Shown: positions 27,376-60,528 of the stretch, in pieces
Numbering within the stretch: position 1 is the stretch's first letter
Layout: the number at the start of each line of letters is the position of its first letter
Source: an uncultured Actinomycetes bacterium
GTDB lineage: Bacteria; Actinomycetota; Thermoleophilia; RBG-16-64-13
Direction: 5' to 3'
DNA length: 64,000 nucleotides
Assembly: GCA_963841735.1 (NCBI GenBank)
Contig: CAWJDT010000001.1
Span: 576,001-640,000, forward strand
Program-made: the position numbers and the translations under genes
Notes under the pieces: generated by a model
Told to the model about the DNA's origin: nothing
The model's database searches: none
What the model saw: only the letters and a program-made list of their open reading frames with translations

Positions 27376-27448
27376 GGGGGTATAGCTCAGTTGGGAGAGC
27401 GTCGCGTTCGCATCGCGAAGGCCAGGGGTTCGAGTCCCCTTACCTCCA
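27376..27448 (+). tRNA. tRNA-Ala(CGC)
   Basis: GGGGGTA/TACCTCC acceptor stem with G3-U70, anticodon arm TCGCG-TTCGCAT-CGCGA, TTCGA T-loop; complete CCA not encoded. Confidence 0.96.
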
Positions 27449-45345: not shown

Positions 45346-45932
45346 CAAAAACAAATACGCCCCGCCCCGCGCTACGCCTGCCAAAGGACGAGGCCTCGCC
45401 GCCAGGGCACGATGGCCGAGTGCGAGAGAAGGACGCAGGAAGCAAGCGTAGCAGAGCTACGGTCGCGACCGAGGACGCCCTATCGCGCCGACCAGTGCGT
45501 TCTGGTGGCCGAGGTTTCGTTCTTTGGCGGGTGCTCAACCTGCTGGTGTCACTCACCCGCGAGGTCGCCTGCTCCGCGACTGTTCTTCGCGGAACCGGAG
45601 CGCATAGGGACGGGACGTTGCCCGCGGTACCACCCTACTTGGCCGCGCGCCGCCGCGCCGAAGGCGCTGCTGCGCTGCTGCCGGTGCCACCGCTCTTCCG
45701 CGGCGCCGCCCGGCGCGACCCACTCAGTGGACGCTCCAGCCCTTGCGGCTGCTACGTCCCCCTTCTGTGACGGGAAGGACCCGGCCGGATCTACTGAGAA
45801 GGGCCGCATAGGAACCCGTCCGTTCGACCGGCGGCTCGGGGATGATCTTCGGACACCGATTCCCGCCGGGCTCACACCATCCCCGGCTCGCTTGGGAGAA
45901 GAGCGACGCCTACTCGTTCCCGTCATCGCCTT
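45346..45932 (-). promoter_or_regulatory. Ile T-box riboswitch, transcription-attenuation type
   Basis: Stem I with AG bulge and GGTGTGAG distal loop, specifier ATC at 45846-45844, T-box AAGTAGGGTGGTACCGCG at 45640-45623, terminator arms 45618-45599 and 45373-45357 followed by a U-rich tract. Confidence 0.9.
45375..45533 (+). repeat. 159-bp palindromic element, copy 2, inside the T-box terminator loop
   Basis: Shares TCGCCGCCAGGGCACGATGG, AAGGACGCAGG, GAGGACG, TATCGCGCCG and GTTCTGGTGGCCG with copy 1; ends are self-complementary with G-U pairs. Confidence 0.8.
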
Positions 45933-46410
45933 TGTGCTGAAGCAGTCTAGATGCCCCCCTGGGAAACTTCAAGCGGACCCGATTGAGCCGGTTCACCGCC
46001 CCGATGCGCACGGTCAGGGCCACGAGGGCTCCCCAGCGGCCGACTCCAAACCATGCTCTCCGTCCATTTCGCTCCACCGAGTCGACTATCCCCAAGATCT
46101 GGCCCGCCGGATGCTCGCCGTTCGCCACGGTAGTGTTGTCGCCTCGGAGCAGAAACAACTCGCCCCGCCTGCGCACCACCCGGTGCACAAGCAGACCGCC
46201 TCCCGGCATACCCCGGATGGCCACAACATCACCCAGATTAGGCTCCGACCCGACCAGCGGCCGCAACTGCACCACGTCTCCCGGCCGGATGAAGGGCAGC
46301 ATGCTGCGCCCATCTACCGGGAAGCGGACCTCCGCGCCCGATTCGAGGGTCGACTCTACCAGCGCGGCCAGAACCTGGCCCGAAGGCACCGCATCGCCGG
46401 GCGCGTTCAT
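45910..46410 (-). CDS. S24/S26-family peptidase
   Basis: GRSMLP.I..GD, GDVV, VHRV, RGDN; ATGA-coupled to the upstream gene. Confidence 0.85.
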   Translation of the reverse strand: MNAPGDAVPSGQVLAALVESTLESGAEVRFPVDGRSMLPFIRPGDVVQLRPLVGSEPNLGDVVAIRGMPGGGLLVHRVVRRRGELFLLRGDNTTVANGEHPAGQILGIVDSVERNGRRAWFGVGRWGALVALTVRIGAVNRLNRVRLKFPRGASRLLQHKGDDGNE

Positions 46411-47390
46411 GCGGACGCGCCCGCCTCCGCCCAGGACCGGCCCATGAGCAGGTCCACCACCTCCGAATCAGCCCGGAAGCGCAGGTCGTAGCAAGGGAAG
46501 GTCTCCACCGCCCGGGCGCACGTCTCCAGCACGAGGTTGCCCCGCACCCGGTCGTACCAGGGGCAAGACACCACCGGCATAAGCCGGCGCATGGCCGTGC
46601 CGACAGGAAGCGACACCAGTTCAGTCTGGTCGGCCTTGACGAGGAAGAGCAGCGCCCCCAGCGGGGCGCAAACGTTCTGAGCCACGCCGGCGTCGCCGGG
46701 CCAGGGAGTTCCCCATATCTCGGCCTGCTTTCGTGCGCCCTCAGACTCTGAGATGCCGCCCGCCCCCTCCCCCCACATGATCACCCGATCGTCGCTCAGC
46801 AGATACTCGGTGTGCCCGGCCGCCATGAACAGCCGACAGAGCGTGGACTTGCCCGCTCCGGAGACGCCCGGAAACACTAGGGCCTTTCCTTGGATCACGG
46901 CAGCCGCCGCGTGCACGATCACCCCTCCTCGCAAGGCTAGGTGGTTCATCATCAGCAGCTGGTCGAGCGGATAGCGCACCGGGTCGGCAAGCTGCCCGGC
47001 CGGCGGCGGCGAAGAAGTCTCCTCCAGAGGAGCGTGAACCACCACCCGAGTTGTCTCGGAGTTAGACCTAGCAACCATGCTGAAGTTGCCCTCGCCGTCT
47101 CCAAAGAGATTGAGCCGGTAGCCTTCATCTTCGATCTGCGCCATCCACTCCCCGCCGGTGTCGAAATACTCGGGAGAGGGGTTGGCAGGAGCGGGATAAT
47201 CCAGCACCTCGATATCTATGGTCGAGGAATCGGGAGCGCGAGAGTCGGACGCGACCTGGAAGGGGAGATAGCAGGGGTCGCCCAGGTCGACCAGCTCAAG
47301 ATCAGAGCGGGCGCGCAGCTTGACGCCGGCGACGCTGAGCGTTCGGACGGCTAGGAACCCCACGACGAGCACGGAGAGATACCGCAGCAA
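46407..47390 (-). CDS. HprK-related P-loop protein (ScmC-like)
   Basis: VIVHAAA, Walker A GVSGAGKST, LSDDR, WGTPW; the start may be GTG at 47363. Confidence 0.75.
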   Translation of the reverse strand: MLRYLSVLVVGFLAVRTLSVAGVKLRARSDLELVDLGDPCYLPFQVASDSRAPDSSTIDIEVLDYPAPANPSPEYFDTGGEWMAQIEDEGYRLNLFGDGEGNFSMVARSNSETTRVVVHAPLEETSSPPPAGQLADPVRYPLDQLLMMNHLALRGGVIVHAAAAVIQGKALVFPGVSGAGKSTLCRLFMAAGHTEYLLSDDRVIMWGEGAGGISESEGARKQAEIWGTPWPGDAGVAQNVCAPLGALLFLVKADQTELVSLPVGTAMRRLMPVVSCPWYDRVRGNLVLETCARAVETFPCYDLRFRADSEVVDLLMGRSWAEAGASA

Positions 47391-47563
47391 CCGCCCAGAG
47401 GGGCGACACCGGTACGGTTGATGCTGACCTGGCTCTTGCAGCCCACGCCGAGCACCTGGTCGGCCTCAAGCCCGATGCGACCCAACAGAGGCGGGCTGTA
47501 AGGCCTCCTGCCGGACTCTCGTCCGGGCGAATCCTGCTGGCGAGATGAACCATCAGCGTGCAT
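47351..47563 (-). CDS. putative RiPP precursor peptide, 70 aa, Cys-rich C-terminus
   Basis: GGAGG RBS then ATG; MHADGSSRQQDSPGRESGRRPYSPPLLGRIGLEADQVLGVGCKSQVSINRTGVAPLGGCCGISPCSSWGS; overlaps the rSAM stop. Confidence 0.8.
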   Translation of the reverse strand: MHADGSSRQQDSPGRESGRRPYSPPLLGRIGLEADQVLGVGCKSQVSINRTGVAPLGGCCGISPCSSWGS

Positions 47564-48671
47564 ACTCGACCTCCGGTCTCTTCCGCACGACCGTCCGATA
47601 CCTGGTCTCTCCCAACTTGCACACATACCTTGCCGGTTCGCTTGGAGAGCCCTGCTCAAGCGCGAACAACGCAGGACAGTAGCCGCATACCCGAAGGTGG
47701 GGACAATCGGCGCATTCGTCCACCTTATCCGATGTCACCTGGTCGGTCGCGGTCACCACCGAACCCCAAGCCTCGGCGAAACCTAGGCTGCCCACATTGT
47801 ACCCCAGGTCCCGACTCATCAGACATGGACGCATGATCCCCTGCGGATCAAGGTGGAATCCCACCGCCCCGGCCCCACAGCGGTACAGGCGGCCGTTGGA
47901 CGTGTCCTTCGACATACAGGGACCGCCGTGGCCCTCTAGAAATTCCGCGGTTTTTGCCCGGCGCCCGGGACTCCTCAACTCCGCCGCCACCGCCTGATCG
48001 GGCTCGACCCGCTGAGTTAGAGGGGCACGGTTACCGTCCAAGCGCGGTGTGACCAGAGGATCCAGCCTGAAGCGCAGACCTAACTGCTCGGCGAAGGCCT
48101 CCATGGCGGGAACATCCTCGACGTTCTCCTTGAGGATCATCGTCTTCAGACCCACCCTGACCCCGCGCTCCAGCATCTTCTCGATCCTCCGCTGCACCCG
48201 CAGATACGCGTTGGCGACCCGGGTGACCCTTTGATAGGTCACCTCGCTCGCTCCGTAGAGGCTCACTTCCACAAGGTGAGGCGGGTACTCGGCGAAAACC
48301 TCGAGGTGGGCCGGCCCAACCAGACTCCCATTGGTGTAGACCGTGATGACGAATCCCATCTGGGCCGCCGCTGCGTATATGTCGACGAAGTCATCACGCA
48401 AAAGAGGCTCGCCGCCGGAGAGCAGCAGAAATAGGCAGCCCTTCTCGGCGGCCGCGGCCAGCATGGTGAGAATCTCGCCCTTGCTCAGTTCGCCCGCCTG
48501 CGAGCAGGGTTGAGCGACTAAATGGGCCGCATAGCAGTGACGGCACCGGAAATTGCATCGATAGGTGAGATCGACCGCCCCGCTCACGGGCACGCGGTCC
48601 CGGTACGCCTTCCGGGCGATCAGATCCACGTATTCAGACGAACCCAGGTCTAGTTGAACACCGCAGTCCAC
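47553..48671 (-). CDS. radical SAM / SPASM peptide maturase
   Basis: CNFRCRHC, SGGEPLL, TNG, SPASM Cys pattern CGAG...RPC...CADC....CGYC...C. Confidence 0.92.
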   Translation of the reverse strand: MDCGVQLDLGSSEYVDLIARKAYRDRVPVSGAVDLTYRCNFRCRHCYAAHLVAQPCSQAGELSKGEILTMLAAAAEKGCLFLLLSGGEPLLRDDFVDIYAAAAQMGFVITVYTNGSLVGPAHLEVFAEYPPHLVEVSLYGASEVTYQRVTRVANAYLRVQRRIEKMLERGVRVGLKTMILKENVEDVPAMEAFAEQLGLRFRLDPLVTPRLDGNRAPLTQRVEPDQAVAAELRSPGRRAKTAEFLEGHGGPCMSKDTSNGRLYRCGAGAVGFHLDPQGIMRPCLMSRDLGYNVGSLGFAEAWGSVVTATDQVTSDKVDECADCPHLRVCGYCPALFALEQGSPSEPARYVCKLGETRYRTVVRKRPEVEYAR

Positions 48672-48673
48672 GT

Positions 48674-48985
48674 TCAGGCCTCCGCCGGTTGAGTAGCTTC
48701 TTCGACTAGACCCGCCTCTTGGAGTTGCTCGACGAAGGCCAGGGCATCGCTTCGAGCCTGTTCCTCTTCTACCTCAAACTCAGACACCAGACCGACCGCC
48801 AAATCGTCGAAGGAATGCCGGCCGTCCAGACGCTCCCAGATGAAACGCCCAGTCTCACTCAGCACGAACAACTCCTGCAGATCGGCAAGGCGGCCTCGGA
48901 TAGGCACCAGGAACACTTCCCCGGCCACCTGACGTTGCACCACGTCACCCACTCGACGAAGTAACGACTCTCCCACGAGACTCAC
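48674..48985 (-). CDS. PqqD-family protein (RiPP recognition element)
   Basis: RQVAGE.FLVP, LSETGRFIWERLDG, EFEV....ARSD...FVEQL...GL. Confidence 0.9.
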   Translation of the reverse strand: MSLVGESLLRRVGDVVQRQVAGEVFLVPIRGRLADLQELFVLSETGRFIWERLDGRHSFDDLAVGLVSEFEVEEEQARSDALAFVEQLQEAGLVEEATQPAEA

Positions 48986-48998
48986 CAGCTCCGGCGCT

Positions 48999-51900
48999 TC
49001 ACCAGGATACCCGCAACGCGGGATCACCAAGAAGATTGTATGTCAGCAACAGCGGAGCCGGCACAGCCTCAGCGGCGGCCTGGCCCATAGCCGCCCGGAT
49101 GACGTCGCCCAGCACCACTTCGTTCTCGGGCCCAAACATCAGTTCGGCAAAGATCGCGCCCAACCTCGCCGAAGCGATGCTGTCTTCCATGGCCGCGGGC
49201 GCCCATACCCCTATGGCGCCGGCGCCCTGCTGTTTAACCAGGGTCTCGCCAAGACCATCGTAGCCGGGAAGCCCATACTGCCCCACTTTGCAGGTGAACG
49301 CGGTCACCAGTGAAAGCTTCACTCCGGACGGCAGACCGGCGACGTCGGCGCTCGTAAGGAGTGCCTCGTCGGCCATCTGATCCTCGCCGCCGTGGCCCAT
49401 GAAGTTGACCAACAGCGTACCATTGCCCAGAGCATCCAAGAGCGCCGGACGAACCTGCTCCGCGGGGAGAAGATCAAGGTAGGCTTTGGAGACCTGCAGC
49501 GAAGAAGGCAGTCCTACGGCGATTGTCTCGCTGTCGGCCGAGAAGTTGCCCCCCCCGTCCTGGTCATCGGCGGCGAGCAGCACTTTCGAGTCACCGCCGG
49601 CTCCGCCGGCAGCCTCATAGGCTTCGATCTCCGCCCGAGCGGCGTCAAGATCGCCCGGCACAAGCGCGGGGATCCTACCGATGGCCACATCGGGCACGCC
49701 ATCGCCGCCCACTACGTCGGCAAGCCGAACGTCAGAGGGAACCAAGCCGAACTCAGTGTCAACCAGAAGCGGCGGCACTATGGAGTCGCCCGCGCCCACG
49801 TTGTTCTTATAGTCATAGCTGCCTTCGCCGGCCAAGACAACGTACCGGGGAGCAGGGGCCCAGGACGCCAGTGCGTACTTGATGAAGCTCCTGATGGCGT
49901 ACGGACTCTTTACTCCGCTGTTGAACTCATCGTAGATCTGGGTGGTAGTCACCACAGCCGTCCTGAGTCCCTGGCCCGACCGGTAGGCCGCAAGGCGACC
50001 GGCAGCTTCAGCGAACTCCGGAGCGGTTATCAAGATGTATTCGGCCCCGCGTCCCGAGTCCCGCAGGCTCGAGCCCTGAGTCGCCGTAATGGCATCAGGG
50101 CGCATAGCTCCAGCGGCGGTCACAACCAGATACTGGCGGCTCTTGGCGGCAGCGAACTTGACCCAAGCGGCCCCGGCCTCGCCACCCGAACCCGCGAGCG
50201 AAACGAGTGCGGGAGTGAGCGGCTTGGCCAGATCGAGCACCCAGGCCTCCGCGGCGCTGAGCCCTGTTACTTCGACCAGACCCGTGGACGGCGCCTTGAA
50301 GAGCAAGCGATCGTCCACAGCGCTGGTGGAGCGCAGATAACTGATGTCAAAGGAGTCGACCCCGAACATGCTATGGCCGATTCCGCCATCTAACACTGCC
50401 GTCACCACGATCTCGTTCGCTCCGGCCAGCAGCACCCCGGCCGGTATGTCAAGGGTCGCTCTATGAACCGTTGTGCCCATCCATCGCTCGTCGCCCAGAC
50501 CGGTGCCGTTCAGCGCGATAGCGGCGTGATGCTCGCCCGTCTGACCAGTCGTTGTAAGCCCTCTAAGCACCACGTCAAGCTGCAACCCAGCCTGCGCGCC
50601 TTCAGCTGCTTCGAAGACGAAGGTCTTCGTCGCCATGGGAGCGAAGCCGGCGACCATGTAGCTCCACAGCCAGAAGTCGCCATCGACCTGATGGAACTGC
50701 TCGGTGATAGGCAGGGCGTCATCCTCCGCATGGACCAGCTCGACGTATTGCGTCTGGCCGATGGCACTTGTGACCACCGTCTTGGCTGCCGACATCAACG
50801 TTCCCCTGCCCACCGCCAGCCAATAGACGTTTTGGGAGGCATACACGCTATCCAGGGCTTGGCCATAGAAGAACAGAGCCGAGCCGTCACTGGCTGGAAG
50901 ATAGGCCACAGTGCGGCCTCGATTGGTGATATTGACACCTTTTGTGCGGAGGAGTTGACGTGCCCGCTGTTCGGTCACGCCAAGACCGCCCACGAGGTCC
51001 GCGGCCTCTACTCGGTAGAGGCCCGAAGCCGTCACTTCGATCCGCAGTCTGTCCCCGGCCACGGCTTCCACCAGCACCGACTCGCTCACCACATCTCGCG
51101 AAACAGCTTCGTGTGACTGCGCCTGCTTGGGTGCCCGCGCCACCTCATTGCCGCGGGCCAATTCGTCAGCGGCCTCTCCGGCAGGCAGAGGTCCCGTCGC
51201 CGTCACTTCGTATGGTCCGTAGATGCGCTCGGCACCCGACATCTCCACTTCCACCAGACGGTAGGTCAGAGCCTGCCCGGCTGCGCCTCCGCGGTCCAGC
51301 AGGCTGTAGGAGCCGCCCGCGGACGATTCCAGAAGTGCCGGGACGAGTGCTCTGTTCACTCTCGACCACCGGCCGGTCTTAATGTCCAGCCGCTCCACGA
51401 AGAAACCGGCCGTGTTGGCCTCGCTCGCGGTCCCCCAGGTCACAACCACCCCTCCCTTGGCGGTGTGGGCTTCAAATTCACTCACAACCACCACTGTCGG
51501 GGAAGTCCTGTATAGACCGGCATCCATGTCGCGAAGTCGTTCCCCCCCGTGTAAGGTCACAACGTCGGTTCGGCCGGTGCTTGGATCGGGATCACTGTCC
51601 TTGGCGTCGTCGCCCCCTTGATCTTTCGGCGAAAACACGGTGCCGTCGGGAAGCGTGAACTGGACTCTGTAGTCTCCGGGAGGCAAGCCAGTGAACTCGT
51701 AGAAACCGTGTTCGTCGGTCCACATGAGCATCGGATCGCCGTTGACGTAGTACAGGTTGTCTCCCGCGCCGTTGAGAAGCCGCACGGGGACGCCCTCAAT
51801 GACGGGTTCGTAGGCATCTTGGATGCCGTCCATGTCGTCGTCGTGCCACACGTAGTCGCCGATACGGCCTTTGAGGAACACCTTGTCCTCAACCGGGTCA

Positions 51901-54671
51901 GTCCATCCTAGTGCCCGCGCCGTCCCATTGTTGTATATGGCCAGGGTGCCCGGAGTCAATTGGGCGTAATCATCGATGATCACCCGGAAGGTCACGGTGA
52001 CGTCGTGGCCCGGCATGAGAGTGCCTACGTTATAGCCGCCTTCGTCCAGGGGATAGGGCGTTCCAGACGTGTTGTCAGGAATGTGGGTCGTCCCTATGTA
52101 GGTGCTCTGAGGCACATAAGTGGTATCGGCCGGGATAGTGTCCGAAACGACGACATCGGGCACCGGGATGCGGCTGACGTTATACACCGCGATGGGCCAG
52201 ACTATTTCGTCCCCCGGACTGATGTACCCGTCGCCGTCGAGGTCACCCGAATACCCGTTGGCAGGGTTGTCGTCGTCGTCGTAGAGCAGGCCGTCTTTAC
52301 CGGCCGTGAATTCCGGCATGGGCGGCACGCTCGTGCCCACATCCAGACCGGGCGCTCCGGCTTCAGAGGTCTGCGGGTCCTGCCCCCATGCCACCGCCAA
52401 CTTGACAGAAGAGTCCAGGGTGTAGAGGAGCAGCCCCGTCTGATCGTTCTTGGCGACGATCGGGTTGATGGGAACAGCCCCGATGGCCCAGGGATAGCTC
52501 GTATCCGAGGTCCAACTCATCGTGGTCGTGCTCCCGGTCGCGGTCTCGATGCTGCCCGCCCCTACTAGGCGGCGGTCGGAGTTGTTCTGTTCGGTGCGGG
52601 AGAACTGCTGCCACAACTCCGCCTGACCGAGACCGACGGTTAACGCACTCGGGCTGTTTCGGCCAACGCTCATAGCAGCCACGGCATCGTACACGACCTG
52701 CCCCGCGGTGGTGGCCGCGACCACACTCTGGGTGGTGAGGGTATCGGTGCTCCTAGACTCGGAGACGTAGGTGCCCAGAGCCGAGACCAGGCCGCCGGAC
52801 ACGTTGACCCCGCTGAAGGTCGTCACGCCCACCGAGAAAGTGCGAGTGCCACCCAGGGTCACTACCACGTTCGCCGTGCCCGGTGTCGGATTGGCCAGAG
52901 CCCAGATTTCTGTCTGAGGCCGGGCGTTGGGTCTTCCGGCTCCACCTTCGGGGGCCATGACCCTTCCGACGAGACTCAGGCCTGTGCCTCCGTACGTCAC
53001 CGCTGCGTTGTATTGGTTGTCCGCATCGTTGCCTATGGCAACCGAAACCAGCATGAGTCGGTTGGGGAGAGAGCCGGTCGTGTGCGAGACCGACAGTGAC
53101 GTCGCCGTAGCACCATCGGCGCCGGTGCTGCGCGAACTGGTGGCGTCAACGGCCATCCCCCGGACGTACACCCTTGCCTGCTCCAATTCCTTCAGACTGT
53201 AGGCGGCGTCGTATCCATTGCCGCTCGGGTCGGTCAACGCGCCGGTCGTCGGATCGGCGTCATAGTCCACGTACACGGTGGTCGCGGTGTCACCGTTGCC
53301 GACCGGCGTGACCCAGATGGGGTTGCCGTTTTCGGTCGGGTTGGTGGGAGAGTTCGGATCGCGACCGATGCCCAGGCCCACCAGAGCCTCAGTGGTCAGC
53401 ATGGTGCTGGGAATCATGGTGTAGCTCCAGTCCCAGGCCTGGTTGTAGTCGACGGATGTGCCCGCCGCATCGGTGGTCGAAAAGGCATAGAAGGGGGCGC
53501 CAGAGCTATAGAAGCTCGAACCGGTGCCGTCGGTCGCGTTCTCCAGGATCTGTTTGTACACTCCGCCGGCCGGGACCGTGACGGCACTGGTGATCCTCAC
53601 TCCCGATGTGTTCCGGCGCTGATACGTCACGCTGATGGAGCTGGTCCCGGGGTTGTAGAGCCAGACCACCGTCCGCTCGTCTCCGGCGTTGGTGGTGACG
53701 TTGGGGGTGGAGACCGGAGTGTAGTAGCGACTCGCCCACATGTCCGTCGGGATCAGGGCCGAGTCACGGCTCTCGTAGTTGGAGGCGACATCGCCCGTCA
53801 GGATGTCCACCTGCACCGGCTTGTCTGAGGTCACATGACCGCCCACTGAGATGTTGGCTACATACGTGCTGTCGCCCTCGTCGAGAGTCAGGGTGGTCTC
53901 AAAGGTCCCGTCGCCGCCGGCGTCGATGCGCACCGTGGTCGCGTCCTGACCGGCCATGATCGAGAGAGCTGTGTACTCGAACATCTGGTAGTCGACGTTG
54001 TCGGCCAGGTTCACGCCCACCGGAGCGCGATAGTCGGTGCCCCAGTTGTTGGTGTCGAACACCTCCACACACCCGGCGAAGAGGGTACCGGTCGCCCCAG
54101 CCCAGCTTGTGCGGGTCATGGCGATGGTCTTGGTGGCCGCCACCTTGTCGCCGCCGTCGAAGTCGATCACCGTCTGCCGCGTGGTGGTGGTGACGTCGTT
54201 GTGCAGGTCGATCAGATCCCCGGCGTTAATGACGTCGCTGGGGATGCCGGGGGGAGCACCGTTGGCCGGGTTACCGTCGCCCCAGATCTGCGTGCCGTCT
54301 AGGTTACCGGTGCTATAGGTGTCCAGCGTGTTGGCTATATCGACGTCGTAGCCGTTCTCCCACTGGTCATAGTAGATGATCGTGCCGTCGGCTACCGCCG
54401 TGATGGTGACGTAACCCGTGATGGGTTCGGTCGGCGCGTCGCTCGGCCCCCCGTTCTCCACCGCCCTAAAGAAGGTCAGCAACTCGTTCTCGGGCAAAGG
54501 AACATAGAAGAACTGCACCGGCATGGCCTGCACGCTCGAGGCCAGCCCCAGTGCCAACGCAATCGCCAGGATCAGGCCGCAGACAAGAGCGACACCCTTC
54601 CGGGCGGCCGCCCTAGACGGGGGAAAGCGACGTATTCCGCTGTCACTCCGTGATTCTGCCCAACCTCGCAT
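48999..54671 (-). CDS. large secreted multidomain protein with C-terminal C25 (gingipain-like) cysteine peptidase
   Basis: GGGAGGG RBS, signal peptide, IgGFc-binding-like region, DUF11-like, SdrD-B-like (IGDYVWHD), then C25 motifs YILIT, IYDEF, VVLAG, IGRIP, GHG, FTC and YNLLGDP. Confidence 0.85.
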   Translation of the reverse strand: MRGWAESRSDSGIRRFPPSRAAARKGVALVCGLILAIALALGLASSVQAMPVQFFYVPLPENELLTFFRAVENGGPSDAPTEPITGYVTITAVADGTIIYYDQWENGYDVDIANTLDTYSTGNLDGTQIWGDGNPANGAPPGIPSDVINAGDLIDLHNDVTTTTRQTVIDFDGGDKVAATKTIAMTRTSWAGATGTLFAGCVEVFDTNNWGTDYRAPVGVNLADNVDYQMFEYTALSIMAGQDATTVRIDAGGDGTFETTLTLDEGDSTYVANISVGGHVTSDKPVQVDILTGDVASNYESRDSALIPTDMWASRYYTPVSTPNVTTNAGDERTVVWLYNPGTSSISVTYQRRNTSGVRITSAVTVPAGGVYKQILENATDGTGSSFYSSGAPFYAFSTTDAAGTSVDYNQAWDWSYTMIPSTMLTTEALVGLGIGRDPNSPTNPTENGNPIWVTPVGNGDTATTVYVDYDADPTTGALTDPSGNGYDAAYSLKELEQARVYVRGMAVDATSSRSTGADGATATSLSVSHTTGSLPNRLMLVSVAIGNDADNQYNAAVTYGGTGLSLVGRVMAPEGGAGRPNARPQTEIWALANPTPGTANVVVTLGGTRTFSVGVTTFSGVNVSGGLVSALGTYVSESRSTDTLTTQSVVAATTAGQVVYDAVAAMSVGRNSPSALTVGLGQAELWQQFSRTEQNNSDRRLVGAGSIETATGSTTTMSWTSDTSYPWAIGAVPINPIVAKNDQTGLLLYTLDSSVKLAVAWGQDPQTSEAGAPGLDVGTSVPPMPEFTAGKDGLLYDDDDNPANGYSGDLDGDGYISPGDEIVWPIAVYNVSRIPVPDVVVSDTIPADTTYVPQSTYIGTTHIPDNTSGTPYPLDEGGYNVGTLMPGHDVTVTFRVIIDDYAQLTPGTLAIYNNGTARALGWTDPVEDKVFLKGRIGDYVWHDDDMDGIQDAYEPVIEGVPVRLLNGAGDNLYYVNGDPMLMWTDEHGFYEFTGLPPGDYRVQFTLPDGTVFSPKDQGGDDAKDSDPDPSTGRTDVVTLHGGERLRDMDAGLYRTSPTVVVVSEFEAHTAKGGVVVTWGTASEANTAGFFVERLDIKTGRWSRVNRALVPALLESSAGGSYSLLDRGGAAGQALTYRLVEVEMSGAERIYGPYEVTATGPLPAGEAADELARGNEVARAPKQAQSHEAVSRDVVSESVLVEAVAGDRLRIEVTASGLYRVEAADLVGGLGVTEQRARQLLRTKGVNITNRGRTVAYLPASDGSALFFYGQALDSVYASQNVYWLAVGRGTLMSAAKTVVTSAIGQTQYVELVHAEDDALPITEQFHQVDGDFWLWSYMVAGFAPMATKTFVFEAAEGAQAGLQLDVVLRGLTTTGQTGEHHAAIALNGTGLGDERWMGTTVHRATLDIPAGVLLAGANEIVVTAVLDGGIGHSMFGVDSFDISYLRSTSAVDDRLLFKAPSTGLVEVTGLSAAEAWVLDLAKPLTPALVSLAGSGGEAGAAWVKFAAAKSRQYLVVTAAGAMRPDAITATQGSSLRDSGRGAEYILITAPEFAEAAGRLAAYRSGQGLRTAVVTTTQIYDEFNSGVKSPYAIRSFIKYALASWAPAPRYVVLAGEGSYDYKNNVGAGDSIVPPLLVDTEFGLVPSDVRLADVVGGDGVPDVAIGRIPALVPGDLDAARAEIEAYEAAGGAGGDSKVLLAADDQDGGGNFSADSETIAVGLPSSLQVSKAYLDLLPAEQVRPALLDALGNGTLLVNFMGHGGEDQMADEALLTSADVAGLPSGVKLSLVTAFTCKVGQYGLPGYDGLGETLVKQQGAGAIGVWAPAAMEDSIASARLGAIFAELMFGPENEVVLGDVIRAAMGQAAAEAVPAPLLLTYNLLGDPALRVSW

Positions 54672-54967
54672 GGTCCCTCCCTTGTCCAAGGCTCCCCCAA
54701 GCCTGACGATCCGTGCACAGATACTTCTATTTGGAGCGTTATCGGCCAACACTTCGTTTACTTAAGCATTTCCGCGCAACCGGCCCACCGGAAGTCACGA
54801 ATACCTACCTATTCAAGGACAGATACGCCCCCCATCCAGGTAACCCTGCCCGGCACCGGCTTCGGCCTCTCGCAGCCGCGGCCACAGTCTGGCGCTCCGC
54901 TCCCCGTCGCGGTACCCTTACGGGCAGCACGGTTACGCCGTCGCAGCATCGATTGCAAGGAGTGGCC

Positions 54968-55555
54968 GTGTCAGAACCATCCGCGAACAAAGGGGCCTTC
55001 TTCAAGCGCAGAGTGCCACTGAAGGGTGTCTTGGCACTGGTCGCCGCGATGTTGGTCATTATGGTCGCTATCGTGGTCGTCCTGGTTCTGGTGGATCACG
55101 ATAGGGATGAGGCACGCCGGTTGGCTGCCGCCGCCGCGACCACCAGCACGGTCATGACGTCGCCTTACGACTTCTCCGAACTGCCTGACAATACCAACCT
55201 GGAAGCGCTGGAGAACGCCACGATGGTCAGTATCTGGATCGCCGACGGCCATGACGCTCCTACCGGTTATGGCCTCAGTTCCGATCTTCCCGCCGCGCAG
55301 GCCCTGAGCGCGGCTATCCGCCATGCTGACGAGTTGGGCTCCGACGAGGCCGCGCCGCTCACGGCAGCTTTTGCCGATGCGGCAGCCGCGGGCGAGGCGG
55401 CCACCTCCACCATCACGTTTCTCTTTGCCGATCGCGGCACTCTCACTTTCTTCCTCGACCTCGACCAGGGAGTCGTGGCCCGGGGAGAGCGTGTTTGGCG
55501 CGCGGTCGGAGACCTCCGAGCTTTGCTGGACGTCGCCCTGGCGGGAAACCAGTAG
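54968..55555 (+). CDS. hypothetical membrane-anchored protein
   Basis: AAGGAG RBS, GTG start, one TM helix. Confidence 0.6.
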   Translation: MSEPSANKGAFFKRRVPLKGVLALVAAMLVIMVAIVVVLVLVDHDRDEARRLAAAAATTSTVMTSPYDFSELPDNTNLEALENATMVSIWIADGHDAPTGYGLSSDLPAAQALSAAIRHADELGSDEAAPLTAAFADAAAAGEAATSTITFLFADRGTLTFFLDLDQGVVARGERVWRAVGDLRALLDVALAGNQ

Positions 55556-55722
55556 CTTGGCGCCGCCGTCCAAGCTCTGTCGAGGCAACACCTACTCCGG
55601 GACCCTACGCGACCGCCGGAAGGGTACAATCTCCATGGACATCTTCGCGGCTCAGTGTCGCGGCCTCGAAGTGATTGCGCTCAAGACCGCCGGGTATCGG
55701 CTCACGGGATTGGAGGGGCATC

Positions 55723-56823
55723 ATGCCCGACAGGCTCTACGGCCCGCTCGATCAGATCGCCGGGTCGACTAGGACAGTGGAAGGCGCCCCAGCGACTAGA
55801 GCCGGCCACGCCGCAGAGGCGGCGGGCAGAGCGCATGCCACAACCGACACAGCGCTCGACGTGCTCCAAGACGACGAGATGCGCTATGTGGCTCACCAGG
55901 CCAACCGGATTGCCACCAGCATCACCTCAGTCATCCTTGGCAAGGAGGAGGTCGTCCGGGCCTGCGTGGTGGCACTCATGGCTGGGGGTCACGTAATAGT
56001 GGAGGACTTCCCCGGGGTGGGCAAGACCCTCCTGGCGAAGTCTCTAGCCCGCTCCATAGACTGTCGCTTCGCCCGCGTCCAGTTCACCCCCGACCTGCTC
56101 CCCAGCGACGTCACCGGCGTCAGTGTGTTCAACCAGAAGACCGGGGAGTTCGAGTTCCGAGCCGGCCCGATCTTCGCAAACATCGTGCTTGCCGACGAGA
56201 TCAACCGCGCCTCCCCCAAGACGCAGTCCAGCCTGCTGGAGTGCATGGAAGAGCGCCAGGCCACCATCGACAACGTCACGCATCCCATCGCCGCGCCCTT
56301 CATGGTCGTCGCCACACAAAACCCCATCGAATACGAAGGCACCTACCCTCTGCCCGAGGCCCAGTTGGATCGCTTCATGATGCGGCTCAGCATGGGCTAT
56401 CCCACGCCAGAGGCAGAAGAAGACATAATCAGCGAGCAGACCTCCCGCGACCCCCTGTCCGCACTCAAGCCGGTAGTGGACGGATCCGACGTGCTGGCTA
56501 TGACCCAAGCGGTCACACGCGTAAGGGTGGCTCCGGCTCTGCGCCGCTACGTCGTGGATATCCTGACGGCCACCCGCGGGCAACGCGATGTGTACTTGGG
56601 CGCAAGCCCCAGGGCCGGCGTCGCGCTGACCAGAGCGGCCAAAGCCTTGGCCCTCTTGCGCGGACGCGACTTCGTGGTACCAAAGGACATCAAAGACCTG
56701 GCCGTGCGCTGCCTGGCCCACCGCATAATGATGGCCCCCGACGCCAAAGTCCACGGGGTGAGCGCCGAGTCTCTGGTCGCGAAGCTGCTTGAGACAGTAC
56801 CTGTGCCTCAAGGCGGCGGGTAG
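55723..56823 (+). CDS. MoxR AAA+ ATPase
   Basis: PGVGKT, RVQFTPDLLPSDVTG, LADEINRA, ATQNPIEYEGTYPLPEAQLDRF. Confidence 0.95.
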   Translation: MPDRLYGPLDQIAGSTRTVEGAPATRAGHAAEAAGRAHATTDTALDVLQDDEMRYVAHQANRIATSITSVILGKEEVVRACVVALMAGGHVIVEDFPGVGKTLLAKSLARSIDCRFARVQFTPDLLPSDVTGVSVFNQKTGEFEFRAGPIFANIVLADEINRASPKTQSSLLECMEERQATIDNVTHPIAAPFMVVATQNPIEYEGTYPLPEAQLDRFMMRLSMGYPTPEAEEDIISEQTSRDPLSALKPVVDGSDVLAMTQAVTRVRVAPALRRYVVDILTATRGQRDVYLGASPRAGVALTRAAKALALLRGRDFVVPKDIKDLAVRCLAHRIMMAPDAKVHGVSAESLVAKLLETVPVPQGGG

Positions 56824-56826
56824 ACG

Positions 56827-58211
56827 ATGCCTCACCCGACCGGCCGGGGCTACACCCTTCTTGCCCTAGCCGCCGTGACCTACCTGGCCGCACGGCTGGT
56901 CGGCACCTGGGAGCTCTTCATGCTCGCCTTCACGCTTCTCGCGGTCGTCTTGCTCTGCTGGCTGCTGGTGACCCTGACCGGCCGGCGAACGAGCGTAGTT
57001 CGCACACTCGCCCCCGATCAACCTGTCGCGGGAGACGAGCCCGAGATCGTCTCGACGATCAAGAATGAATCCTTCTTGCCGGGACCGCAGCTGACGCTGC
57101 GTAGTCGCTTGGAGGGGCTGAGCGGCGCGAATCTCGAGGCAGAGGTGGAGAGTCTGCGTCCGCGCGGTGAGAAGGTGATCAAAGCCCGCATCGAGGTGGT
57201 CAACCGAGGCGTGCACTATCTGCCCCCCCTGAGGCCATCGCTGAGGACCCCTTGGGAGTGGCGCGGGCCGTCCACCGGACAGGTGACCCGCTGACGGTGA
57301 CCGTCCTTCCCAAGGTGGCGCTGCTCGAATCGTGTGCGCTACACCCGGATATCGGCCTGCGGCACGACTGGGCCGGCCGGCAGGGGCTTAGCACTTTTGG
57401 GGCGTCGGAATTCCGGGGGATCCGGCCGCACCAGCCCGGAGAGCCACTCAGCCACATCGATTGGAAGAGCACGGCCAAAACCGGCATCCTGATGCTCCGC
57501 GAGATGGACGAACCCGCCGGCGCCGACATCACCTTGTTGCTCGACGGCACCAAGGCCCAGGTGTCGGGAGAACCGCCAAACAACAATTTTGAGTTGGCCG
57601 TGAGAGCGGCGGGCAGCATAGGAGACTTCCTTCTCCGCGCAGGTCACGGGCTCAGACTACTCTGCCACGAGCACGCGTGGAGACGTGAGCGCCTCACAGC
57701 CGACGAAGGCGGTCGCCGCGCCCTGTTACAGGCACTGGCCGAGACGCAGCCTACCGCTGCCGCGCCGCTGGCCGTCGGCCTGCAGCGCCTCCGTACTGGT
57801 GACTCTCGTCTGCTCCGCGCACAGAGCATCACGGTCGTCAGCATGTCGCTGAGCCTCCAGCTGGTACGCACCCTGCTTGAGTTGCGCGACGAGAGCGCCC
57901 GGCCGGCCTTCGTGTATGTGGCCGGCGAATCGTTCGCCAAGGCGGACAACCCCTCCTCTTTGTTACCCTTCCTAGCGCCAAAGCGTTTCGGCGGCGCCGC
58001 GCACCACAACACAGCCGCCGCTAGCCCGATCGTACCGGCCGAACCTGCCGCGGGGGAGGAGGGCTCCGCCCTCTCCGCTGAGGCCGGCGCCCTCCTGCTC
58101 TCTCTGTCTTCCGCCGGTATCCCCTGCCTGACTCTCAACCGCGGCGATGACCTCACCGACCGGCTTTCCCTATGGCGCCCAGACCGCCGGGGCCAGGCCG
58201 CGGTGCTGTAG
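56827..58211 (+). CDS. DUF58 protein (frameshift at the C7 run 57223-57229)
   Basis: N-terminal TMs, RG...L, DPLG, EFRGIR.HQPG..L.HIDWKSTAK; lies between MoxR and a transglutaminase. Confidence 0.85.
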
Positions 58212-58227
58212 GCAGGGCCGGAATATC

Positions 58228-60528
58228 GTGAAAGTCCTTCCCCGTTTCATATACCTTAGCTGCTTCATCGGCTTGGGAGCGGTCTCCGCTCTGGCCCTCG
58301 ACCAAGCGGTGGAACCCTCCATGTCTGCCGTCCTTCTCCGGGCCGTGTTCATAGCAGCCGCCTGCGCGGCTCCAGGATTGATCTGGCGCAGGCTCTGGCC
58401 GCTGGCTATCGTGCTCCTCCCCTTGGGCTGCTACTTCCTGCTGCGAACCACGGTCCCGCTGCCCACCACGGTGCATGGTCTCGGCAATCACCTCGACTTC
58501 TACCTGAGCCAACTGCGGCAAGGGGCAACCGCCTACGAAACTACTCTCTTCCCTCTGCCCGTAGGAGAGTTCCCGGCATTGCGAGCGTTGCTGGCGTTCT
58601 CAGCCTACTGGCTGTTGGCGGCAGCGGCTTTTCTGGCCCTCAGCCTCCGCAGAGCGATCCCGGCGGTGGTGCTCGTTCTAGCCTTGCTGGGCTACGGTCT
58701 GACAGTGGATGACAAGCCGCGGGTGCTATGGCCCGCGCTTCTGTTCGGTGTCCTGTCGGTGTGTCTGATAGTGATCTGCCGCGGACTCGCCCGCGGTAGC
58801 TGGCGGCCGCGAGACGTGGCCACCGGCGGTCTTATCGGGGTAGCCGCATCGGTTCTCGCGCTTGGGCTGATGTTGGGCGCACCCTCCGTGGCGGCCACCC
58901 CTTGGCAGGACTGGCGCTCCTGGGACCCGTTCCGGCAAGGTGCGCCCGCGTACACGTTCAATTGGCTACAAAACTTTCCCGGCTTACTCGATCCAAGCAA
59001 CAACTTCGTGGTAATGCAGGTGCGATCCCCCTTACCGGCCTACTGGCGGGCCAACGCCCTCGACACCTTCACTGGGACCGCCTGGGTCACATCGCAGGCC
59101 TTCCTTTCTCGGGTCGAGGGAACCACCGGCGCGAACGGCTACATATACACGCTGCCCGCGACCGAACTCATGCCCGCCGGGGAGACTGTGACCGAGACTT
59201 TCCAGATCCGCGACGTATACACCAACTACTTTTTTGCGGGCGGCGACCCCCAGACCCTCGACCTCGATCAGAATGTCGCTCTGCGCATGAACAGCATGCG
59301 CTCGCTGCGGGTAAGCAACGCCCTGGGACCAACACTCGACTACAGGATCACCGCGGTCATCCCCCGCCTCAAGCCGGCCGATCTGGTAGGGCTCGGCACC
59401 GACTATCCGGCCGAGTTGGATCGCTACCGCACTCTGCCCTGGGGCACCATCGCCGATCTCAGGGGCCCCGACAAGGATGCGGAGTGGCGCAGCAAGGTGG
59501 AGTCTGGTGCGCCAGACGGCTGGGAATGGACCGAGCTCTACTCCTTCAACCGCCGCGTCGTCGGTGAAGCGACCGACCCTTACCAGATCGCCCTTCTCAT
59601 CGAGCGGTATCTGCGCCGCAACTACACATACTCGCTCGAGCCCCCGACAGGCGAGTACTTCTCCCCGTACGCAGCCTTCTTGTTCAACTACCGCACCGGC
59701 TACTGCCAGCACTTCGCCGGTGTCATGACCTTGCTGCTGCGCTACAACGGCATCCCGGCGCGGGTCGCGGTGGGCTTCACCACTGGATCTCCCGATACGA
59801 CGGGGACATATGTGGTCAGCAGGAACAACGCTCACGCCTGGGTGGAGTCCTACTTCCCCGGTGTTGGCTGGGTGAATTTCGATCCCACTCCGGGACGGAG
59901 CATACCCACTGCGGGCGGCTCCTCCACCAGCCCAGGGTTCATCGATCCCTTCAGCAATGCAGCGGCACCAGAGTCGGGGACCGTTGACACCGTCCCGACT
60001 CCCACCACCCTCCCCGCGCAAAGCCAGGCGGGGGGAAACCCCGCAACGCCCGACGAGAAACAAGCCCTCGGCCAAGCCACCTGGTTGCCCTGGGTGGCCG
60101 CTGTGGTGGCCATGGGAGCGATCTGGCCCCTCCTCCTCGGGCTGTGGCGACGGCGGCGGCTTCACAGGGGAGCCCCGGACCGGCGCTTGGAGGCGTCGCT
60201 AGCACTTCTCAGGACCGACCTACGTGACCACGGGGTACCCATCACTCCGGCCCACACTCTCGCTGAAGCTCTGCAAGTACTCCAGCACCAGGTTGGCGTG
60301 GCTCCCGACCTGGTGCTTGTCGAGCGGGCCGATTGTGTACTGTTCGGGGGCAGGAGTGCCTCTAATGAAGACCTGACGCGGGCCAAGAGTTTCCGCTCCC
60401 AGGTTGGGAGAGTCCTGCGAAGCCATCGAGGCTGGTTCAGAACCGTCTGTGCGTGGTACGGAATACCACGCCGGCGGACGCCCACCCCTCAGGCGAAGGG
60501 TCATCCCGGACGGTTTGGCGCCGCCTAA
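58228..60528 (+). CDS. transglutaminase-domain membrane protein (TgpA-like)
   Basis: TM region, YWR...LD.F, GYCQHFA, GIPARVAVGF, HAWVE, FDPTP. Confidence 0.9.
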   Translation: MKVLPRFIYLSCFIGLGAVSALALDQAVEPSMSAVLLRAVFIAAACAAPGLIWRRLWPLAIVLLPLGCYFLLRTTVPLPTTVHGLGNHLDFYLSQLRQGATAYETTLFPLPVGEFPALRALLAFSAYWLLAAAAFLALSLRRAIPAVVLVLALLGYGLTVDDKPRVLWPALLFGVLSVCLIVICRGLARGSWRPRDVATGGLIGVAASVLALGLMLGAPSVAATPWQDWRSWDPFRQGAPAYTFNWLQNFPGLLDPSNNFVVMQVRSPLPAYWRANALDTFTGTAWVTSQAFLSRVEGTTGANGYIYTLPATELMPAGETVTETFQIRDVYTNYFFAGGDPQTLDLDQNVALRMNSMRSLRVSNALGPTLDYRITAVIPRLKPADLVGLGTDYPAELDRYRTLPWGTIADLRGPDKDAEWRSKVESGAPDGWEWTELYSFNRRVVGEATDPYQIALLIERYLRRNYTYSLEPPTGEYFSPYAAFLFNYRTGYCQHFAGVMTLLLRYNGIPARVAVGFTTGSPDTTGTYVVSRNNAHAWVESYFPGVGWVNFDPTPGRSIPTAGGSSTSPGFIDPFSNAAAPESGTVDTVPTPTTLPAQSQAGGNPATPDEKQALGQATWLPWVAAVVAMGAIWPLLLGLWRRRRLHRGAPDRRLEASLALLRTDLRDHGVPITPAHTLAEALQVLQHQVGVAPDLVLVERADCVLFGGRSASNEDLTRAKSFRSQVGRVLRSHRGWFRTVCAWYGIPRRRTPTPQAKGHPGRFGAA

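Follow-up and report, generated by a model that had tools for sequence, protein, structure and literature searches.

Described systems closest to the locus

In a 64,000-nucleotide stretch of DNA from an uncultured Actinomycetes bacterium (contig CAWJDT010000001.1, positions 576,001 to 640,000; hereafter the window), a block of six genes encodes a small cysteine-rich peptide, the proteins that would mature it, and a giant protein that ends in a C25 peptidase domain. The block is predicted to be an RRE-dependent radical SAM system for a RiPP, accompanied by an unusual conserved partner (RiPP, a peptide made by ribosomes and modified after translation; RRE, RiPP recognition element; SAM, S-adenosylmethionine). 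The reading favored here, to which we give somewhat better than an even chance, is that it makes an uncharacterised RiPP, cross-linked at Cys, phosphorylated at Ser and cut from its leader, which is functionally coupled to the giant C25 protein.

The SynChlorMet cassette, defined bioinformatically through the models TIGR04248 (ScmD), TIGR04249 (ScmC), TIGR04250 (ScmE) and TIGR04251 (ScmF), likewise unites a PqqD-like protein, a radical SAM/SPASM enzyme and an HprK-like P-loop protein. We know of no characterised SynChlorMet product, and none was found in a literature search. The initial annotation of the window, made from its sequence, had pointed to this cassette, and the resemblance holds in part: the kinase-like protein falls in the Pfam family ScmC (PF27840), and ScmD is the top NCBIfam match of the RRE. 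Conversely, scores of 20-64 bits stand against cut-offs of 100-400, there is one radical SAM enzyme (rSAM) instead of an ScmE/ScmF pair, and the window's cassette adds an S26-like peptidase and the giant C25 protein.

A second comparison is offered by the phosphorylated lasso peptides of the paeninodin and pseudomycoidin types, whose clusters encode an HPr-kinase homolog and a nucleotidyltransferase besides a B1 RRE. As described in PMC8498205, the C-terminal Ser of the precursor is phosphorylated on its side chain by HPr-kinase homologs of lasso clusters, after which the phosphate can receive hexoses from a nucleotidyltransferase of the PF14907 type, and lasso precursors of kinase clusters from different phyla have little in common besides that Ser; PMC10368454 gives YxxPxL as the conserved leader motif of lasso precursors. 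Common to the window's locus and these systems are the YxxPxL motif, a small RRE of the PqqD type, a kinase resembling HprK and a precursor that ends in Ser. It differs in that neither a lasso cyclase (the Asn-synthetase-like C protein) nor a B2 transglutaminase-like protease is found among the six products, which include an rSAM/SPASM enzyme instead. Counted from the presumed cleavage site, the leader motif occupies positions -20 to -15, as compared to -17 to -12 in lasso precursors, and the family lacks their Thr at -2. The leader motif, small PqqD protein, kinase-like protein and C-terminal Ser/Thr thus look like a lasso-type recognition and phosphorylation set in which an rSAM has replaced the cyclase.

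The rSAM itself is comparable to the maturases SkfB, CteB, PapB and AlbA, which combine a radical SAM domain with a C-terminal Fe-S (SPASM/twitch) region and act on a Cys-bearing, leader-dependent peptide; SkfB is a thioether-forming sactisynthase. Unlike in these sactipeptide and ranthipeptide maturases, the RRE of the window's cassette is a separate protein and not an N-terminal domain, and the family scores lie far below the cut-offs. For the giant protein the closest described relative is PorU, the C25 sortase of the type IX secretion system (T9SS), a transpeptidase that attaches cargo to a cell-surface glycolipid. A literature search confined to papers open without subscription, apart from supplements and Pfam entry text, yielded no description of the cassette, the precursor family or the C25 link; the main text of the RRE-Finder paper (PMC7470986), supplements aside, does not mention kinase, HPr, S24, C25 or SPASM.

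A six-gene operon

Positions 45910-54752 (minus strand) hold six co-directional genes with overlapping or abutting ends, listed here in the order of transcription:

48999-54752, minus strand: giant C25 protein; open reading frame (ORF) opens at GTG; Pfam, NCBIfam and PDB matches
48674-49030, minus strand: PqqD-family RRE, 118 aa; PF05402 match
47553-48671, minus strand: radical SAM/SPASM maturase, 372 aa; PF04055 match and Cys motifs
47351-47563, minus strand: predicted precursor peptide, 70 aa; ORF frame, GGAGG before the ATG, orthologous peptides
46407-47390, minus strand: predicted ScmC-family HprK/PEPCK-fold P-loop protein, 321-327 aa; precomputed PF27840 annotation, predicted fold
45910-46410, minus strand: soluble S24/S26-type serine peptidase, 166 aa; GRSMLP, VHRVV and RGDNT motifs

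The C25 and PqqD genes overlap by 32 nt, the rSAM and peptide genes by 11 nt, the peptide and HprK-like genes by 22-40 nt and the HprK-like and S24 genes by 4 nt; elsewhere in the operon the gap is ~2 nt. No further long family-bearing ORF was found on either strand of 45910-54752, and a promoter/terminator scan of the region gave no sigma-70-like site and nothing convincing. The six-gene content listed in the initial annotation (C25, PqqD/RRE, rSAM-SPASM, 70-aa peptide, HprK-like, S24/S26) is borne out by the ORFs and their family matches, and so is its statement that the operon lacks a transporter gene, none of which lies within the six genes. Its description of the maturation cassette as fused to the giant protein was wrong: C25 is a separate gene.

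The small ORF and its family

The ATG of the peptide gene is preceded by GGAGG six bases upstream. Its 70-aa product, for which Pfam and NCBIfam scans gave no known family, contains four Cys and carries a leader of the form RRPYSPPLL...ADQVLGVG (motif YSPPLL), followed by the presumed core CKSQVSINRTGVAPLGGCCGISPCSSWGS, whose C-terminal residue is Ser. The source genome holds a single copy. Orthologs of the rSAM at 47-56% identity were found at nine loci in eight related genomes (the close loci), and in all nine the peptide frame and the leader motif are kept; since the flanking proteins there are only 47-56% identical, the ORF is more than a chance frame. The small ORFs of the nine close loci all follow the pattern RRPYxxPxLxx(V/I)xLxA(D/E)EVLxxGCK, then two further Cys and a C-terminal Ser. 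Orthologous peptides were found in 20 other loci, and similar peptides stand beside an rSAM in Nitrospirota, Verrucomicrobiota, Chloroflexota, Planctomycetota, Thermodesulfobacteriota, Bdellovibrionota, Aminicenantota and others.

To delimit the family, a profile of 21 peptides was searched against 1.84 billion cluster representatives, of which 2207 matched at E<=1e-3 and 48 at E<=1e-10. Family statistics were taken from the best 150 of the 2207 matches, 147 of them no longer than 120 aa. Among these 147, the C-terminal residue is Ser in 140 and Thr in the remaining 7, with a Gly-Ser ending in 123; the motif [YW]xxPx[LIVM] is present in 145 and CK in all, and 132 contain exactly three Cys. The distance from the Tyr of the motif to the Cys of CK is 20 residues in 145/145. 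Position -1 before this Cys is occupied by Gly (122/145) or Ala (9/145), and position -3 mostly by Ala or Gly. From Cys-Lys onward the peptides run for 20-32 residues (mode 26) with conserved spacing of the three Cys, five residues following the last one in 118/145, so that the family pattern reads C-x12-16-C-x4-5-C-x4-Ser. A conserved leader joined to a variable core in which only the Cys and the C-terminus are fixed is the signature of a RiPP precursor, and the small ORF is accordingly predicted to encode a genuine member of a large and stereotyped precursor family. No other features point as strongly to RRE binding and to the target of the kinase as its lasso-type YxxPxL leader and invariant C-terminal Ser, respectively.

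The recognition protein and the radical SAM enzyme

The PqqD protein (PF05402, 65 bits, E 7.5e-18) is present in all nine close loci, where its gene and the conserved precursor lie adjacent to the rSAM, as they do in many distant loci. In NCBIfam it scores highest with ScmD (36 bits, cut-off 100), followed by the lasso PqqD chaperones NF033536 (33.3 bits, cut-off 80) and NF033530 (29.1 bits, cut-off 70), and none of the three cut-offs is reached.

The rSAM matches PF04055 at 85 bits (cut-off 29.5, E 8.4e-24). Its CNFRCRHC motif (C39-x3-C43-x2-C46) is invariant in 34 homologs. A C-terminal seven-Cys SPASM motif is formed by C265, C283, C320, C323, C329, C332 and C351; each of these residues, as well as G278 (four residues before C283), is kept in at least 90% of the 34 homologs. 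The Pfam SPASM domain was not detected in the window's rSAM at E<=0.01 and was detected in its homologs from three other loci (L015, L016, L020). In a profile search of the PDB the best matches were SkfB (1.5e-28), PqqE (1.9e-25) and CteB (5wgg; 1.7e-14), with SuiB (5v1q) also found. No NCBIfam equivalog cut-off is reached by the rSAM: ScmE and ScmF score 64.2 and 62.6 bits, respectively (cut-off 400 each), and the mycofactocin maturase model 82.9 bits (cut-off 265). The latter alignment covers positions 11-310 of 339, the only near-full-length one among the enzyme's top NCBIfam models, and the homolog from locus L002 scores 105 bits against the same model.

The HprK-like protein

A precomputed annotation, given without a score, places the HprK-like protein (P0122) and 115 of its 120 listed homologs in PF27840; the Atlas name is ScmC. 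The database version starts six codons later than the ORF. In NCBIfam the protein scores 34.9 bits with HprK_rel_A, 31.3 with HprK_rel_B and 20.3 with ScmC, all below the cut-offs and matching only around the P-loop, as also in the last case (equivalog TIGR04249, E 2.8e-4, cut-off 125). The AlphaFold2 (AF2) model of the protein (pLDDT 88.4, pTM 0.88) was compared with known structures by Foldseek, which returned ATP-dependent PEPCK at E 1.2e-6 and the HprK/P structures 1knx, 1jb1 and 1kkl at E 2.6e-4 to 1.9e-3; a sequence profile found HprK 1jb1 in the PDB at E 0.004. The homologs share an invariant P-loop and, after it, an acidic motif: all of them carry G175, S177, G180, K181, D200 and R202, and at least 90% have D201. 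The model and these residues indicate a P-loop protein of predicted HprK/PEPCK fold, and by analogy with the lasso clusters it would be the kinase that acts on the peptide's C-terminal Ser.

The possibility that a missing nucleotidyltransferase or transporter is encoded nearby was considered and rejected. The genome's single PF14907 gene (G000:C1:788011-788763, 133 bits) is ~165 kb distant, and its surroundings, to 10 kb, encode no homologs of the cassette proteins.

The S24/S26 peptidase

The peptidase matches Peptidase_S24 at 21.1 bits (E 2.6e-4), just under the cut-off of 23.3 bits, and the archaeal-type signal peptidase I model TIGR02228 (sigpep_I_arch) at 25.5 bits, short of its cut-off of 51.85. 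Among its homologs in other cassettes, those from L008 (52.8 bits) and L018 (57.9 bits) pass the latter threshold and that from L014 (31.3 bits) fails. An alignment of 26 cassette peptidases showed GxSMxP (the SM motif) in 25, HR in 25 and GD in all. With the Ser of GxSMxP and the His of HR, which we take to be the catalytic residues, the protein is predicted to have the Ser-His arrangement of signal peptidase I of the archaeal and endoplasmic reticulum type. The same three motifs, with His where bacterial signal peptidase I has Lys, characterise the S26B signal peptidases (e.g. SipW) and SodX, with which the window's enzyme also shares a presumed site with small residues at -3 and -1. It differs from them in being encoded inside a RiPP cassette and in showing, on inspection by eye, no clear membrane segment or anchor. 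The small residues at -3 and -1 before Cys-Lys in the precursor family resemble a signal peptidase site, so that the core probably starts with Cys and the S26-like enzyme is the presumed leader peptidase.

These features bear on another explanation, namely that the peptide is the precursor of a small cofactor or metal-binding group, akin to mycofactocin, PQQ or the Ni-hook of nickel superoxide dismutase (NiSOD), of which only the invariant ends matter. The mycofactocin pathway also combines an RRE, an rSAM/SPASM enzyme, a peptidase and a decorating enzyme, and its maturase, which is the model that the window's rSAM covers almost completely, acts on the C-terminal residues of its precursor and not on Cys. 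The NiSOD maturation protease exposes an N-terminal metal-binding His-Cys, and its model is matched by the window's peptidase at 23.1 bits, below the cut-off (23-35 bits when cassette homologs are included). Invariant residues at both ends of the core (Cys-Lys; Gly-Ser) would fit as well. On the other hand, none of the scores comes near its curated cut-off (265 for MftC), the neighborhood of the module lacks conserved redox partner enzymes, and the conservation of the three-Cys spacing and of a 20-32-aa core suggests that the whole core is kept. We consider a cofactor precursor improbable.

The giant C25 protein

Starting from the ATG at 54671, which is probably the true start and coincides with the end coordinate of the initial annotation, the giant protein is 1890 aa long, as in the database version (P0392); from the GTG it would be 1917 aa. 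A signal peptide is followed by a ~450-aa N-terminal domain, DUF11, an SdrD B-like domain (105 bits), a PorU-like region and C25. The Peptidase_C25 match is complete (241 bits, cut-off 23, E 3e-71, model positions 1-374) and covers aa 1572-1915 of 1917, thus ending the protein. The best NCBIfam match is the PorU model NF033707, at 202.6 bits compared to a cut-off of 420 and over model positions 106-733 of 1095. For the C-terminal 567 aa the sole PDB sequence match was PorU (6za2; E 1.1e-12), with the His and Cys motifs aligned, and the catalytic His (GH) and Cys (TC) are kept in 14/14 full C25 domains from related loci. Unlike in PorU, the C25 domain ends the protein with neither another domain nor a CTD after it, a ~1300-aa adhesin-like N-terminal part is attached, and the host, judged by the source names of the homologs, is not one of the Bacteroidota.

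The signal peptides of the orthologs show, by eye, an AxA-like site before a conserved PVQFFYVP, and a twin-arginine motif is not conserved among them; the giant protein is thus predicted to be secreted by the Sec route. Twin-arginine export of the protein together with a bound peptide was rejected on the same ground.

In the N-terminal domain (aa 76-530; 53163-54527, minus strand) Pfam found nothing in three sub-segments at E<=0.1, and the ESM Atlas gave IgGFc_binding as a weak lead (0.75). More than 200 large SdrD-B/DUF11 surface proteins, most of them without C25, have N-termini that are 50-60% identical to this domain; they come from many phyla and include one from a methanogen. For a surface protein, so high a degree of cross-phylum conservation is remarkable. 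No sorting signal of the LPXTG or CTD type was seen in the giant protein. It is thus predicted to be a surface protein of adhesin-like type, to which this lineage adds a terminal C25 domain.

Could the giant protein itself be the substrate of the rSAM and RRE, with the small ORF acting as a decoy, regulator or second substrate? PMC13692751 reports that thioethers can be introduced into a Cys-rich protein of full size by a SPASM rSAM, and the giant protein and the rSAM are co-inherited. Inspection by eye found two Cys in the mature giant protein, one of them catalytic, and no leader motif of the YxxPxL type; its Sec signal would have it leave the cytoplasm unfolded; and the leader and Cys pattern of the small peptide is conserved in ~2200 clusters, including cassettes without C25. 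This scenario is extremely improbable.

The PorU match also brings up the possibility that the locus is a plain member of a described system, be it SynChlorMet, a lasso cluster or a T9SS PorU locus. The ScmC annotation in Pfam, ScmD and the lasso PqqD chaperones as best matches of the RRE, the YxxPxL leader and PorU as best match of the C25 region all point that way. Every curated equivalog cut-off is missed widely, however; there is one rSAM and neither a lasso cyclase nor a B2 protein; the PorU model is matched only in part; and the close homologs come from metagenome-assembled genomes (MAGs) named as Actinobacteria and Thermoleophilia, not from Bacteroidota. Membership in a described system is thus very unlikely: the cut-offs for SynChlorMet, lasso and PorU equivalogs all remain unreached.

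Conservation of the link between the cassette and C25

The presence or absence of each gene was called by tblastn with a handful of queries, and kinship among the genomes inflates the counts given here. The order C25, PqqD, rSAM, small ORF, HprK-like is kept in all nine close loci, the C25 gene of one (L118) being cut by the contig start. In family f1, strong C25 matches (E<=1e-50) were found in G000, G028, G058 (two copies), G142, G153, G163, G173, G218, G258 and G273; a type-1 rSAM is present in all of them but G173, where the C25 gene stops 137 bp short of a contig end. Seven of 15 genomes of the same genus lack both C25 and the type-1 rSAM.

A distant genome set yielded 24 loci with both an rSAM and an HprK-like match. 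C25 is encoded in seven of them (L002, L005, L006, L009, L015, L016 and L050), which belong to Nitrospirota, Verrucomicrobiota, Chloroflexota, Planctomycetota and 'delta' MAGs. In five of the seven it is directly adjacent and co-directional, and the gene order of L002 (Nitrospirota) is identical to that of the window. On a quick maximum-likelihood tree of 56 cassette rSAMs (16 C25-linked rows), the C25 label needs 5 changes, compared to a mean of 14.2 after shuffling, and none of 500 shuffles was as low. Cassettes with two rSAMs fall on this tree into two distinct paralog clades, neither of them with C25.

Metagenomic loci were sampled through the peptide motif AEEVLAxGC. From the resulting 424 stretches and 112 relatives the best 80 were taken further, of which 41 loci had enough flank to be informative. 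C25 was found in 30 of these, directly upstream and co-directional in 22 (gaps of 10-431 bp) and elsewhere in the locus in 8. In three of the 11 loci without C25, a homolog of the N-terminal part of the giant protein lies directly downstream and runs off the contig. Large ORFs upstream of the cassette in three C25-less loci (L140, L155, L166) were dismissed as candidate partners: they belong to no family and look like Arg-rich spurious frames. The downstream neighbors in the long metagenome loci are mutually unrelated, and no conserved transporter or exporter was found in or beside the module, either in the window's flanks or in those loci. Type-2 cassettes of the same class have no C25 within ~9 kb. 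Taken together, these distributions indicate that within this RiPP family the giant C25 protein accompanies one branch, recurrently and across phyla, and is not a universal component.

Sister cassettes and variant neighborhoods

Many of the distant loci without C25 are cassettes with two or three rSAMs, accompanied by PF14907, ABC transporters and polysaccharide genes. Such sister cassettes (L008, L010, L011, L014, L018 and L119-L127, the last group from the window's class) hold 2-3 rSAM/SPASM enzymes, PqqD, an S24 peptidase and an ScmC-like protein, often also a PF14907 nucleotidyltransferase and an ABC transporter. Sister precursors, located in L008 (two copies), L010 and L018, have a WxxPxL motif and the CK...C...C...S layout. 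The Scm cut-offs were not reached in the two-rSAM relatives checked (L008, L011, L014, L018). The PF14907 nucleotidyltransferase is present in L006, L008, L010, L011, L014, L016 and L018.

In four loci from Gram-negative MAGs (L003, L005, L009, L016) the cassette adjoins genes for a Poly_export/SLBB Wza-like protein, a Wzz/GNVR tyrosine-kinase-like protein and a BBP2_2 beta-barrel. These neighbors hint at a link to exopolysaccharide or envelope assembly, a link that was not seen in the long metagenome loci of the C25 type.

In a locus of a Myxococcota/'delta' MAG (L007:7040-9574), an 844-aa subtilase (Peptidase_S8) is encoded directly upstream of PqqD and rSAM, in the place of C25. One large secreted protease may here have been exchanged for another.

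One genome (G058) carries two whole modules, on contigs L114 and L115. Their rSAMs are near-identical (end branches of 0.025 and 0.067), and the giant-protein open frames measure 2455 and 809 aa; the module may have been duplicated recently, or a gene may be split or the assembly faulty.

A possible pathway and its alternatives

From what is known of these protein families, the PqqD protein would bind the YxxPxL leader and present the precursor to the rSAM/SPASM enzyme, which would modify the core, most likely by thioether cross-links on the conserved Cys. By analogy with the lasso kinases, the ScmC-family protein would phosphorylate the side chain of the invariant C-terminal Ser, and the S26-like peptidase would remove the leader at A-x-G before Cys-Lys. 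The giant protein, predicted to be Sec-secreted and adhesin-like, with a PorU-like C25 domain whose catalytic pair is intact, could have the peptide as substrate, ligand, regulator or attachment partner of that domain. The RiPP half and the C25 half are co-inherited across phyla, and a common process in which both the peptide and the C25 protein take part is therefore most likely.

Several points weigh against this coupling or against single steps of the pathway. What kind of cross-link is formed can only be guessed: the mycofactocin maturase model, too, is aligned by almost the entire rSAM, and the Cys layout, one at the start of the core and two near its end, is unlike that of classical sactipeptides. 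The lack of a conserved exporter, combined with the Sec signal on the giant protein, makes it problematic where a cytoplasmic peptide would meet its partner. The initial annotation had suggested checking for co-occurrence with an S26 enzyme, which holds for most close loci; in three of the nine (L110, L111, L116) the S24/S26 gene is absent and the kinase-like gene is followed directly by ileS, so that either another protease serves there or leader removal is dispensable. The annotation had also made conservation of the C25 linkage one test of its proposal. The linkage is kept in this branch, in all nine close loci, and is missing from 17 of the 24 distant loci and from all two-rSAM cassettes; C25 is thus not needed for making such a peptide. 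Strong C25 matches without a cassette occur in four genomes of other families (G021, G023, G033, G210). Co-occurrence within one family is weaker evidence than recurrence across phyla, since adjacent genes are trivially lost or gained together. The tree evidence comes from a quick search only, and the metagenome sample includes near-duplicates and is biased by a motif taken from peptides of the C25 type.

One alternative that these absences favor is that the peptide is an ordinary stand-alone RiPP and the C25 gene a mere syntenic neighbor, or operon passenger. The distant and two-rSAM cassettes without C25, the four genomes with C25 and no cassette, and the S8 subtilase in the C25 position of L007 would all be expected from a passenger, and an adjacent block would be gained and lost together whatever its function. 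Nevertheless, C25 lies directly upstream and co-directional in at least four phyla at 30-37% protein identity, and it recurs in 30 of the 41 informative metagenome loci. Moreover, the association persists whether C25 lies upstream, downstream or divergent, a pattern to be expected from selection for co-occurrence and not from an inherited gene order. A passenger role of the C25 gene is thus unlikely, though it retains a real chance.

An additional scenario is that of sortase-like surface attachment outside the Bacteroidota, in which the C25 domain would use the peptide as a transpeptidation partner, either as acceptor or anchor for the adhesin or as a tag for the envelope or exopolysaccharide. 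The peptide would be cross-linked and C-terminally phosphorylated, and phospho-glycosylated in the relatives that bear PF14907. The absence of a visible sorting signal in the adhesin, the polysaccharide-export neighbors of L003, L005, L009 and L016 and the lack of a conserved transporter of the module's own would fit such a role, to which we assign a low probability.

If the coupling of RiPP and C25 protein favored here is true, the ~2200 clusters of this unnamed precursor family would represent one uncharacterised RiPP class, spread over many mostly uncultured phyla. In this class, radical SAM chemistry would be joined to leader recognition of the lasso type and to phosphorylation of a C-terminal Ser, which our literature search did not find described in combination. 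The recurrent pairing of one branch with a giant C25 protein would be unusual, as RiPPs are normally thought of as diffusible and this one would work with a cell-surface enzyme, and it would provide a direct experimental handle on C25/PorU-like domains outside the type IX secretion system.

Flanking genes and genomic setting

Downstream of the operon lie ileS and a ClC channel gene, and the module sits just upstream of ileS in 8/8 close loci. The upstream flank is divergent from the C25 gene:

54713-55555, plus strand: small single-pass membrane protein gene, divergent from the C25 gene; one hydrophobic stretch
55675-60528, plus strand: MoxR AAA+ ATPase, 155-aa ORF, DUF58 and TgpA-like transglutaminase membrane protein; a common operon type

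The product of 54713-55555 belongs to no Pfam family, and its true start is probably downstream of 54713. A homolog of it (41-49% identity) is encoded beside the start of the C25 gene in 8/8 close loci, and the gene may thus be a seventh member of the system, its membership being uncertain. The TgpA-like transglutaminase (58147-60528), part of the MoxR/DUF58 operon, adjoins the cassette in 4/8 close loci. The source genome comprises 2.8 Mb in 8 contigs and is 89.7% complete. An Rfam scan of the window gave as its sole match a tRNA gene at 27376-27448 (plus strand), far from the operon.

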